A DNA stretch of 63,281 nucleotides, the filler included. It is 4 parts of 4 records of this genome, joined end to end, with 100 filler letters (N's around TTAATTAATTAA, not from the genome) between each part and the next. Parts side by side here need not be neighbours in the genome. Positions count along the whole stretch, not along the records: positions 16,331 to 42,214 come from SRR2962707_848; 3 more parts are not named here. One strand, given 5' to 3'. Below the pieces are notes generated by a model, which made no database searches, was not told where the DNA came from, and saw nothing but the letters and a program-made list of their open reading frames with translations. This document shows, in pieces, positions 16,231 to 57,402 of this stretch. Numbering within the stretch: position 1 is the first letter of the stretch; each line of letters starts with the position of its first letter. The translations under genes were made by a program, and so were the position numbers.

Positions 16231-16330
16231 NNNNNNNNNNNNNNNNNNNNNNNNNNNNNNNNNNNNNNNNNNNNTTAATTAATTAANNNNNNNNNNNNNN
16301 NNNNNNNNNNNNNNNNNNNNNNNNNNNNNN
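16231..16330. other. Artificial contig spacer
   Basis: 100-nt N block with TTAATTAATTAA at 16275-16286. Confidence 0.99.
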
Positions 16331-39290: not shown

Positions 39291-40877
39291 GTGAAAAACT
39301 CGTATTTACTTGCCATATTATCAGGACTATTATTAGCACTAGCTTGGCCAACATATGGTGTCCCTCTGCTTGCTTTTATTGGTTTTGTTCCCTTACTGTT
39401 AGCCGAAAAACACATCCGAGAATCTAATTATAAAAGAAAAGGAGCTAAAGTATTTTTTACAGCATACCTAGCTTTTATTATTTGGAATTCTATAACCACT
39501 TGGTGGATTTGGTATTCTACCCCTTTTGGGATGTTTTTTGCATTGGCTGTGAATTCACTTTTAATGACGATTGTTTTTTCTCTTTATCATTTTGTAGCAA
39601 AGCGTTTACCCGCAAAAATCCATCTTATATTTCTCCCTGCTATTTGGATGGCTTTTGAAAAGTTTCACCTCAACTGGGATTTTTCTTGGCCATGGCTCAA
39701 CTTAGGAAATGCCTTCTCCCAATATACTACTTGGATTCAATGGTATGAGTATACAGGAACTTTTGGAGGTGCACTTTGGATTTGGATTATTAATATTGGA
39801 GTTTTTACAACAATTGTTAAATATCAAGAAAGTAAGAATAGACGTATTTTATCAAAAGGAATTGCTCGCAATGTTTTATTAATTGCGATACCTATTATTT
39901 TTTCTCTCTTTTTACTGAAAAATTACGAGGAGTCCTCTCAAAAAGCAGCAATTACTTTACTACAACCCAATATAGACCCATACTCTCAAAAATATGATAT
40001 TTCAAACCTTCAAATGGCAAAAAGCCTTGTAAAACTAGCTAAACCAGTTGTTACATCGAATACAAATTATGTTATTGCGCCAGAAACGGCATTGGCAAAA
40101 GGCTCCTCTATAGATGCATTTGATAACGCTACAGAAAAAATGGTTTTGCAAAACTTTGTGAGTCAGTATCCAAATATGCAATTTATTACAGGAGTAGACT
40201 TCTATCGTCATTATCCTCAGAAAGAAAAACCTACAATTACTGCAAACTTTTATGGTCAAAATGGTTGGTTTGATTTTTACAATGCTGCCGTACAAGTAGG
40301 AAAAAATAACATTTCAGAAAAATATATAAAATCAAAATTAGTTGTTGGGGTTGAAAACTTTCCTTTTAAAAATGTTCTAGAACCTTTATTAGGAGATGTT
40401 ATGCTAGACTTAGGAGGAACTGTGGCAATGCGAGCAACACAAAAAGACCGCAGCGTTTTCTTTTCAAATGATAAAGTATTTGCAGCTGCTCCTATTATAT
40501 GCTACGAATCTATTTATGGGGAATTTGTAACAGGATATGTAAAAAACGGAGCTAACTTTTTAGCAATTATTACTAATGATGCTTGGTGGGACAACACCCA
40601 AGGACATAAGCAACATTTAAGTTACGCAAGACTTCGTGCTATAGAAACTCGTAAAAGTGTTGCCAGAAGTGCAAATACGGGAATTTCTGCCTTTATAAAT
40701 GAGAAGGGAGAGGTTACCAAAACACTTGCTTATAATGCCAAAGGAAGTTTATCTGGAGAAGTTACTATCAATAATAAAGAAACCTTTTATGTAAAATATG
40801 GGGATTATATTGCCCGATTGAGTGTGCTTTTTGCAGGAATGATTTTACTTTATGCTATTGCTCGTAAAAAACAATAA
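39291..40877 (+). CDS. lnt: Apolipoprotein N-acyltransferase
   Basis: WPWLNLGN, QPNIDP, PETA, K..LV.GVE, ICYES, TNDAWW, RAIE, ANTGIS. Confidence 0.95.
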   Translation: MKNSYLLAILSGLLLALAWPTYGVPLLAFIGFVPLLLAEKHIRESNYKRKGAKVFFTAYLAFIIWNSITTWWIWYSTPFGMFFALAVNSLLMTIVFSLYHFVAKRLPAKIHLIFLPAIWMAFEKFHLNWDFSWPWLNLGNAFSQYTTWIQWYEYTGTFGGALWIWIINIGVFTTIVKYQESKNRRILSKGIARNVLLIAIPIIFSLFLLKNYEESSQKAAITLLQPNIDPYSQKYDISNLQMAKSLVKLAKPVVTSNTNYVIAPETALAKGSSIDAFDNATEKMVLQNFVSQYPNMQFITGVDFYRHYPQKEKPTITANFYGQNGWFDFYNAAVQVGKNNISEKYIKSKLVVGVENFPFKNVLEPLLGDVMLDLGGTVAMRATQKDRSVFFSNDKVFAAAPIICYESIYGEFVTGYVKNGANFLAIITNDAWWDNTQGHKQHLSYARLRAIETRKSVARSANTGISAFINEKGEVTKTLAYNAKGSLSGEVTINNKETFYVKYGDYIARLSVLFAGMILLYAIARKKQ

Positions 40878-40938
40878 CTTTTTACTGTTAATTAGAAATG
40901 CTAAATCAAACTCACGGTATGTAACTTCCTTTAGATAT

Positions 40939-41607
40939 TTAATGAGACTTAAATTTTTTAACCCCAGCAGTAATTGCATAATCTAACGTATTCTCTTTTG
41001 GCACAATAGGACAAGAGTATTTTTTATTATACGCACAATACGGATTATACGCTTTATTAAAGTCAATTGTAATGGAATCGGTTTCCGGGATCCTAAGGTC
41101 TATATAACGCCCCCCTCCATAGGTTTCTTCCCCATTAGTTTTATCAGCAAATGGCAAAAAGAGATAATCTTTATATTCTTCTGTTTCTTTTAACTGTAGA
41201 TTTTGATATACGTTTAAAGAAAACTTTTTACCATGCAATTCAAAATAAAGGATTCCAAACAAAACTTCCTCCGATTTTCTATCTGTGGTTGTTGGCATTA
41301 AAAATGGCTGTTCGTTTGGAGTTAATTCTAATTTGGCAACCACATTAAAACTTGTATCTATTGGAAAAAATTCTAAACTCTCAAATCCTATAAAATCTTC
41401 TTTCGTTAATGGAGATTCTTTAGGATCTGCATATTCTTCATTTATTTCCTTCTGAAAAGCTAGTGCCTGAGCTTCCTTACTTAATTCAGTTTTTATATTT
41501 TCTGAAGTTGCTTTTATTTCCTTTTTATCATCATGATATTTTTTCCCATCCTTACAAGCAGTCATTAAAAACACAATAGAAAGAGTAATAAAAAAGTTTA
41601 ATTTCAC
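40939..41607 (-). CDS. DUF1684 family lipoprotein
   Basis: FLPFADKTNG..TYGGGRY, DFNKAYNPYCAY...SCP. Confidence 0.92.
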   Translation of the reverse strand: MKLNFFITLSIVFLMTACKDGKKYHDDKKEIKATSENIKTELSKEAQALAFQKEINEEYADPKESPLTKEDFIGFESLEFFPIDTSFNVVAKLELTPNEQPFLMPTTTDRKSEEVLFGILYFELHGKKFSLNVYQNLQLKETEEYKDYLFLPFADKTNGEETYGGGRYIDLRIPETDSITIDFNKAYNPYCAYNKKYSCPIVPKENTLDYAITAGVKKFKSH

Positions 41608-41805
41608 ACTAATAAATTTAAGTTTAACAATTAATTCTCAATGTTTTATCCCACAACACAAAGCGCCACTACCTTTAAAAAGACCTTCGTTTTATTATTC
41701 CCTTTTGTGGAAGTAACTGTTCTTGGTCATTATAAAATCCTACTATAAGGACATTTTAAATAGTTTTTTCTGAAAAACAAAAATACAACTTATTACTTTT
41801 TTAAG

Positions 41806-41813
41806 TAGCTTTG
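41806..41813 (+). promoter_or_regulatory. Bacteroidetes -7 element upstream of the leader peptide
   Basis: TAGCTTTG 39 nt before ATG 41853. Confidence 0.6.
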
Positions 41814-41852
41814 TTTTGAATTCGTTTAGGCGAGTTCATTAACAATAAAAAA

Positions 41853-41930
41853 ATGATGAAACATATTACAACGTATAATAAATCTTATGTGTACTCTCTG
41901 GTACGCTGTTGGTGCTTTTGTATGATGTAA
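41853..41930 (+). CDS. Putative leader peptide (25 aa) MMKHITTYNKSYVYSLVRCWCFCMM
   Basis: Hand translation; A-rich initiation context, upstream promoter, downstream terminator with alternative pairing. Confidence 0.65.
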   Translation: MMKHITTYNKSYVYSLVRCWCFCMM

Positions 41931-41953
41931 TAATGTTACAAACATAACTATAT

Positions 41954-41990
41954 AAAAGCCCGACGCTAAAAACGTCGGGCTTTTCTTTTT
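41954..41990 (+). terminator. Intrinsic terminator (candidate attenuator)
   Basis: AAAAGCCCGACG-ctaaaaa-CGTCGGGCTTTT followed by CTTTTT. Confidence 0.88.
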
Positions 41991-42019
41991 AAAACCAATT
42001 AATAATTTTTTAAACTGAT

Positions 42020-42040
42020 AAACCCCATACAGAGGGATTT
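42020..42040 (+). repeat. Isolated dispersed-repeat terminus
   Basis: AAACCCCATACAGAGGGATTT. Confidence 0.4.
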
Positions 42041-42109
42041 GTTTTAGTTTAAGTATTTGCCTTAATAAAAGTAATTGAACAAAGCTAAGGGTTTTAAAAA
42101 AGCTAGTTA

Positions 42110-42214
42110 TTAATCAACTACCTCGGGGCAAACTATGAGGTAGTCAAAGGAAAATAAGTAAATCCATTTCGATATCGAGCCCTTTGGTAAACTCTGGACA
42201 GGCTTTGGGGAATA
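42110..42214 (+). repeat. Dispersed repeat copy, truncated at contig end
   Basis: ACTACCTC..GAGGTAGT hairpin, AATCCATTTCGAT, GAGCCCTTTGGTAAACTCTGGACAGGCTTTGGGGAATA. Confidence 0.85.
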
Positions 42215-42314
42215 NNNNNNNNNNNNNNNNNNNNNNNNNNNNNNNNNNNNNNNNNNNNTTAATTAATTAANNNNNNNNNNNNNNNNNNNNNNNNNNNNNN
42301 NNNNNNNNNNNNNN
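42215..42314. other. Artificial contig spacer
   Basis: 100-nt N block with TTAATTAATTAA at 42259-42270. Confidence 0.99.
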
Positions 42315-57302: not shown

Positions 57303-57402
57303 NNNNNNNNNNNNNNNNNNNNNNNNNNNNNNNNNNNNNNNNNNNNTTAATTAATTAANNNNNNNNNNNNNNNNNNNNNNNNNNNNNNNNNNNNNNNNNN
57401 NN
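57303..57402. other. Artificial contig spacer
   Basis: 100-nt N block with TTAATTAATTAA at 57347-57358. Confidence 0.99.

Follow-up and report, generated by a model that had tools for sequence, protein, structure and literature searches.

A probable ribosome-dependent transcription attenuator upstream of an MDR family MFS transporter gene in Flavobacteriaceae

Results

Organization of the leader locus

The stretch of DNA analysed in this study (hereafter the window) comprises 63,281 nucleotides, and the leader locus lies on its contig SRR2962707_848 (positions 16,331-42,214). The features of the locus are listed in Table 1 by their positions in the window. A short A-rich leader precedes an ORF of 25 codons, which was confirmed with its ATG start as it had been claimed in the original prediction. 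The TAnnTTTG element, which we take to be a -7 promoter box of the Bacteroidota type, was likewise found at its predicted place, and the strong terminator claimed downstream proved to be a 12-pair stem, with seven G-C pairs, followed by a T run that reaches 41990. Only one terminator-like site was present in the region 40800-42216, compared with 0.6 +/- 0.8 in shuffled sequences.

Table 1. Positions of the features at the leader locus
Feature	Position	Strand	Basis or remark
DUF1684 protein, 222 aa, divergent neighbour	40939..41607	-	Pfam PF07920, E 1.5e-47
Conserved block CAAAAATACAACTT, upstream of the -7 box	41778..41791	+	conserved in relatives
-7 promoter box TAnnTTTG, TAGCTTTG	41806..41813	+	read in the sequence; conserved in relatives
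Leader ORF, 25 codons, MMKHITTYNKSYVYSLVRCWCFCMM, TAA at 41928-41930	41853..41930	+	ATG start
Segment 1 (codons 3-11), 5' strand of helix P1, the anti-antiterminator	41860..41884	+	minimum-energy folds
Apical hairpin P2, mid-ORF	41889..41906	+	minimum-energy folds
Segment 2, G/U-rich switch strand, from the last 8 codons through the stop to 7 nt past it	41905..41937	+	both folds
Segment 3, antiterminator 3' strand; overlaps the terminator 5' arm (41954-41965)	41949..41966	+	folds
Intrinsic terminator, stem 41954-41965 with 41973-41984, then T run	41954..41990	+	terminator scan
Dispersed repeat copy, ~105 nt, between terminator and transporter gene; contig breaks inside	42112..42214		

The contig ends at 42214, where the N spacer begins with position 42215, and thus stops 224 bases past the terminator and within a dispersed repeat, to which the assembly break can be attributed. 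The context 3' of the contig end was read from the nearest genome (G001) and from other genomes; the identity of G001 to the window was 100% across the 455 nt surrounding the element and 99.2% across 4455 nt. The next same-strand gene in G001 encodes a 402-aa MFS_1 transporter of the 'MDR family', so the regulated gene that had been placed beyond the contig end does follow the leader there. The ~105-nt intergenic repeat had 42 matches of 74-88% identity in G001, its own locus counted, and is probably a small non-autonomous mobile or REP-like element. Together with this repeat, the spacer between terminator and gene extends to 302 nt here, as against 17-60 nt in most relatives, and it may contain a second promoter, by which the switch would be bypassed.

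Three N runs with a TTAATTAATTAA linker (16231-16330, 42215-42314 and 57303-57402) indicate that the window is made of at least four contigs, and no feature should be taken to extend over these joints. The adjoining contig (42315-57302) opens with a run of the CGTGGT hexamer and has 45-49% G+C, compared with about 32% elsewhere in the window, and a 3-kb piece of it was without match in G001; foreign DNA, an island specific to the strain and a contaminant contig in the assembly are possible explanations.

The 402-aa protein matched the Pfam family PF07690 (MFS_1) with 164.8 bits at a gathering score of 33.4, and MFS_3 below threshold, while the Tet, Cmx and EmrB models gave only weak matches, all far below their cut-offs. 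It is therefore an MFS_1 member, drug:H+ antiporter-like and with 12-helix efflux-type relatives, and its nearest solved relative was NorA (1.7e-12). Relatives are named 'MDR family MFS transporter' or 'MFS transporter' by NCBI, the nearest named ones being those of Joostella (85%) and Galbibacter (77-82%), and the identity across genera of the family was 46-86%, with a few matches lower.

The block upstream of the -7 box was invariant or nearly so in seven sequences of the same genus, and a strict regular expression (TACAAC, 10-22 nt, TAnnTTTG) matched 46 of 80 loci from other genera. The predicted promoter would be the one used upstream of the leader ORF, and the distance from the box to the leader ATG is 39 nt in the window and 18-23 nt in most relatives. 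The block may be a putative regulator site or part of a back-to-back divergent promoter. On the opposite strand, it reads TATTTTTG, a -7-like box directed towards the DUF1684 gene, and this gene and the leader-transporter unit may share a back-to-back promoter region. The divergent neighbour was kept in 57 of the 80 related loci, and its N-terminus looks like a predicted lipoprotein signal; as a functional clue it was of no help, both of its solved relatives being labelled uncharacterised. A regulon motif was also considered for the promoter block and rejected, the longer block-plus-box pattern occurring once per genome in the three genomes tested. The longer 5' leader of the window species has a possible 6-bp hairpin (41836-41841 with 41854-41859) over two ATG codons, which is absent in the relatives with their shorter leaders.

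Conservation of the leader before one orthologous gene

Six genomes of the same genus and two from other genera carried the same promoter block, small ORF and terminator before the transporter orthologue. An alignment of the transporter (62-86% identity) was used to scan one genome per species, which matched about 586 stretches, and 80 loci from many genera of Flavobacteriaceae were taken for comparison. In the relatives, the promoter block is followed by an ORF that starts with ATG and has about 22-28 codons, and then by the terminator. A terminator was found 17-302 nt before the transporter gene at 85 of 89 loci, and all but one of these 85 had an ORF of 17-32 codons with its stop 15-42 nt before the terminator stem (84 loci; start codon ATG in 83 and TTG in one), the single locus lacking it being cut by a contig end.

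A covariance model built on 83 leaders was searched in 151 genomes across the family and found a match in 77 of them, almost always once per genome. The best 30 matches had an MFS gene directly downstream in every case, and 71 of 85 matches lay 6-297 nt upstream of the transporter on the same strand, with one more on closer look. Among the 14 matches not adjacent to the transporter, seven were two pheA leaders, one MFS leader on a small contig and four gene ends with terminators, and the remaining seven were partial (E from 2.8e-5 to 8.7e-4). The single-copy occurrence of the element directly upstream of one same-strand gene argues for action in cis. In an order-wide sample, the leader was also found before the MFS orthologue in two genomes of a second family.

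The transporter orthologue was present in 103 of the 151 genomes, and 32 of the genomes with it had no adjacent model match. When 30 of these were examined, 14 had a terminator beside the gene, including 11 with a small ORF, and 16 had no terminator detectable by the strict finder, which argues that the switch is dispensable in some lineages. At the loci L149 (G115) and L152 (G130), the promoter block stands directly before the transporter gene with neither leader ORF nor terminator, and the attenuator has apparently been lost in these lineages. In one large genus of the family, nine genomes were without a model match at E <= 1e-5. The conservation expected in Flavobacteriaceae held for the ORF, antiterminator, terminator and downstream gene; it did not hold for the peptide.

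Mutually exclusive RNA helices

The region 41830-42000 (171 nt) folded with -44.8 kcal/mol (z = -5.9), and none of 200 dinucleotide shuffles folded as well. In the minimum-energy fold lacking the 3' arm of the terminator, 41905-41924 paired with 41949-41966 in 18 pairs with one bulge, by which the predicted pairing of 41908-41923 with 41950-41964 was recovered. A third helix (P1), missed in the original prediction, is formed by 41860-41884 with 41911-41937. The switch strand (segment 2) thus has segment 1 and segment 3 as alternative partners, and the presence of the anti-antiterminator P1 gives the full classical four-segment design.

When the MAFFT alignment was folded with RNAalifold, the terminator was the only helix recovered, and the helices beyond it were therefore taken from the fold of one member of the alignment (L089), which favours these helices over the slid controls. 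Pairs were counted on the MAFFT alignment, which was not fitted to any structure, and since the aligned leaders are kin, the following counts are not independent events: the terminator had 96.7% of cells paired with 9 of 10 pairs changed on both sides, and P1 had 63.7% paired with double changes in 13 of 15 pairs. Under the same limits of kinship and of helices chosen from one fold, the antiterminator had 72.5% of cells paired, compared with 29-41% when the partner was slid, with double changes in 17 of 21 pairs, and P1 and terminator taken together had 77% paired, compared with 33-44% when slid, with double changes in 22 of 25 pairs. Compensatory changes were thus seen in P1, antiterminator and terminator, and the folds predicted to exclude each other are both conserved.

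Measures independent of the alignment were in agreement with these counts. The duplex between the last 48 bases of the ORF and the 5' arm region had a mean energy of -16.7 kcal/mol (z -4.1, from 40 shuffles per sequence), and its z-score was below -2 in 71 of the 83 leaders. P1 of at least 8 bp could be formed in 81 of 83 leaders, and an apical hairpin of at least 4 bp was found in the P2 segment in 67 of 83, with unrelated sequences. The terminator sequence is unusually conserved, and a near copy of its 3' arm lies within the ORF; by eye, this copy and the terminator change together, for example in L020, L043 and L090.

Predicted translation of the leader ORF and drift of its peptide

An ATG-started ORF was present in 82 of 83 distinct leaders, compared with 10.9% of dinucleotide shuffles. 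The ATG occupied one alignment column in 79 of 83, and the stops were confined to two adjacent codon columns. The conserved GG of the switch strand stood at a distance of 52, 55, 58, 61 or 64 nt from the ATG in 77 of 80 leaders, and the variable middle of the ORF measured 21, 24, 27 or 30 nt in 78 of 83 and a multiple of three in 79 of 83, while the spacing 3' of the ORF varied with no period. Because the length changes within the ORF are multiples of three, we infer that the leader ORF is translated.

This evidence bears on an untranslated element, either a switch of RNA alone (a riboswitch, or an attenuator to which a protein or a tRNA binds) or chiefly a free-standing gene for a small RNA or a small protein. 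The strong structure with its conserved internal loops, the dominance of RNA-level constraints in the sequence conservation and the stable RNA of about 150 nt that termination would yield all agree with such an element, but start, stop and a single phase of the insertions and deletions have been kept, and a hairpin that is not translated has no reason to change its length in threes. We consider an untranslated element scarcely credible. A functional small protein is argued against by the lack of a Pfam match together with the unconserved peptide; it was rejected along with a RiPP precursor, for which the ORFs of L019 included no maturase-like neighbour.

Column entropy along the ORF had no three-base periodicity, and a crude pN/pS was 0.83 in frame compared with 1.16 and 0.86 in the shifted frames. 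Third codon positions were as fixed as the first and second ones; of 36 Val codons, for instance, 35 were GTC. The typical exchanges were Tyr/Cys (TAT/TGT) and Trp/Arg (TGG/CGG), which keep A-U/G-U or U-G/C-G pairs and are non-conservative at the protein level. The peptide was consequently dropped as a conserved object. The G+U fraction was 0.64 in the last nine codons compared with 0.44 in the rest of the ORF (83 leaders), and Cys and aromatic residues made up 29.9% of these codons compared with 17.6% of the rest. The Cys/aromatic tail, which had been singled out as an unusual peptide, can thus be explained by the G/U-rich composition of a strand for which two pairing partners are required, and as a feature of the freely varying peptide it was not conserved. 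The longest run of a single residue in the 83 peptides was 3, and no amino acid was fixed at any codon column, the best being Thr in 48 of 83; in the window peptide, Tyr stands at codons 8, 12 and 14. Judged from these patterns, the act of translation would matter rather than the sequence of the peptide.

A further alternative is a specific arrest peptide, for which a drug or metabolite, the pump substrate, would stall the ribosome from within the exit tunnel as in leaders of the erm, cat and tnaC type. The target is an efflux-type MFS protein of the NCBI 'MDR family' with NorA as its nearest solved relative, the N-terminal pattern V-T-I-Y/C-R-K-Q-W-T-S is common to many genera, and as a precedent, attenuation through a leader peptide and induced by drugs has been reported for the MFS pump of mef(E)/mel (PMC4335068). 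But that N-terminal pattern falls on the RNA strand engaged in P1, third codon positions are equally fixed, no clear purifying selection was found in frame, and the genus of the window carries a different peptide. No conserved arrest motif, as would be expected of drug-specific leaders of the erm, cat, cmlA and mef type, was recognised in the 83 leader peptides, and specific arrest is, in our judgement, quite improbable.

Ribosome positions and the predicted switch

The locus combines a promoter-proximal ORF, an intervening terminator, an antiterminator at the end of the ORF and a 1:2 helix that a ribosome can mask. In folds with a masking ribosome at codon 8 (Tyr8) or codon 12 (Tyr12), the antiterminator was the best structure before the 3' arm exists, while a ribosome at the stop removed the antiterminator and the terminator formed. 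The full leader with no ribosome folded into P1 and the terminator. The logic of the earlier proposal, in which the antiterminator is blocked once a ribosome stands at the stop and read-through calls for a stall further upstream, thus holds in these folds.

A plausible course of events can be drawn from these models. Transcription would start at the Bacteroidota-type promoter and yield four RNA segments, namely codons 3-11, the switch strand and the 5' and 3' arms of the terminator. With no ribosome, 1:2 would form, then 3:4, and transcription would stop. A ribosome that reaches the stop codon would cover segment 2, so that 3:4 would again form and transcription would stop. A ribosome lagging or stalled at roughly codons 3-13 would instead mask segment 1 and leave segment 2 free, and the freed strand would pair with segment 3 before segment 4 is made, by which the polymerase could read on into the transporter gene. 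The direction of the switch suggested by the modelled folds is hence that the pump would be on when translation of the leader lags. In the window species, the antiterminator (-30.2 kcal/mol) was already the minimum-energy state of the truncated transcript with no ribosome. As this fold is the thermodynamic optimum, the off state in the absence of translation rests on the kinetic assumption that P1 is the first to form.

Discussion

Our results indicate that the element is probably a ribosome-dependent (leader-peptide) transcription attenuator of a monocistronic gene for an MFS transporter of the 'MDR family', a reading drawn from comparative sequence evidence. The ribosome-controlled architecture proposed in the original prediction is in line with the ORF, antiterminator and terminator, which are conserved before one orthologous gene in many genera. 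The original prediction had not recognised the leader as a described attenuator class, and this view agrees with the searches made here, in which neither an Rfam family nor a publication describing the leader element was found. Rfam gave no match at threshold on the window, the best being RF00506 (Thr_leader) with 34.8 bits against a gathering score of 55, and the sub-threshold matches (Thr_leader, HrrF and MicC) were all driven by the terminator. Four related loci gave no Rfam match at E <= 0.01, and a full-text literature search found no description of the element. For a flavobacterium, the available part of one report describes leader-peptide attenuation only for amino-acid biosynthesis operons (PMC9723704).

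What makes the ribosome lag may first be sought in the codons of segment 1. If the leader were a codon-specific sensor of amino-acid starvation, an uncharged Thr, Ile, Val, Lys or Tyr tRNA would stall the ribosome in segment 1, and the transporter would move a related compound. Within codons 3-14, Thr is found at least once in 78 of 83 leaders, at least twice in 55 and at least three times in 15. Tyr is present in 67 of 83 and each of Lys, Val and Ile in 78-79, and the three Tyr codons of the window peptide fall in the same stretch. Classical thr and pheA leaders of similar layout exist in the same order, and the weak Thr_leader match points in the same direction, but its score lies under the gathering score. 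Against such a sensor, residue runs are never longer than three, no amino acid is fixed per codon column, a codon for Tyr in one leader may be a codon for Cys in another, Tyr is absent upstream of the switch strand in some leaders, and pN/pS is 0.83; moreover, the target is an MDR-like MFS protein, which belongs neither to a biosynthetic operon nor to a known family of amino-acid permeases.

The covariance model itself also matched thr and pheA leaders at weak E-values, namely L175 (G273) for thr and L160 (G020) and L165 (G070) for pheA. Of the 23 residues of the thr leader, 12 are Thr, and in the pheA leaders 9-10 of 25 residues are aromatic, whereas the present leaders have no long runs, which makes a classical single-amino-acid sensor unlikely; the clustered regulatory codons in segment 1 by which attenuators of amino-acid operons are known are missing. 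On the whole, codon-specific starvation sensing is unlikely. By eye, the gene behind the Phe/Tyr/Trp-rich leaders L160 and L165 was read as a prephenate dehydratase and aminotransferase operon, and that behind L175 was read from its N-terminus as an aspartokinase-homoserine dehydrogenase.

As there are no codon runs and the peptide is not conserved, we favour a generic sensor of slowed elongation, and the trigger may be a general slowing, for example by ribosome-targeting natural products, a view that we hold with a little less than even confidence. In a broader and more tentative form, the leader might be a family-wide 'translation speedometer' that reports how far the first ribosome lags behind the RNA polymerase and switches on the MFS pump, which is possible rather than probable. 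If so, the pump, perhaps with the DUF1684 neighbour, would belong to a core response to translation stress or to marine ribosome-targeting natural products.

Bacteroidota largely lack Shine-Dalgarno-led initiation, and with an attenuator of this type, the coupling of transcription and translation could be tested in a phylum whose ribosomes initiate in the absence of a typical Shine-Dalgarno sequence. Leader-peptide attenuation would here act on a conserved transporter in about half of the sampled genera of Flavobacteriaceae, with marine members among them, and the leader is a candidate new RNA family for addition to RNA catalogues. Inducers of read-through may serve as a route to the compound that the pump exports. 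Recognition of the element also guards against annotating the terminated leader as a small RNA, or the ORF as a gene for a Cys-rich peptide.

The classical leader-peptide attenuators of amino-acid operons are those of the E. coli leaders trpL, thrL and pheL. The present leader resembles this type in its promoter-proximal short ORF, whose stop marks the end of segment 2, in its 1:2, 2:3 and 3:4 helices and in the terminator just before the regulated gene, and its predicted read-through would likewise occur only with a ribosome stalled in segment 1. It differs from them in having no runs of regulatory codons (maximum run 3) and in its target, a drug-efflux-type transporter instead of a biosynthetic operon.

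Another type of leader-peptide attenuator is induced by translation stress or antibiotics; the bmrB-bmrCD genes of Bacillus subtilis, in which efflux genes are controlled in this manner, belong to it, and the leader peptide upstream of the MexXY regulator of Pseudomonas aeruginosa reportedly does as well. With these two and with mef(E)/mel (PMC4335068), the present leader would share a short leader ORF, a choice between terminator and antiterminator set by the ribosome, an efflux pump as target and the absence of amino-acid codon runs. No sequence relation to the three was found, and the element occurs in Bacteroidota. With mef(E)/mel as a precedent (PMC4335068), a slowed-elongation trigger would fit an efflux-type pump, and unlike mobile resistance genes, the pump behind the present leader is a conserved chromosomal gene.
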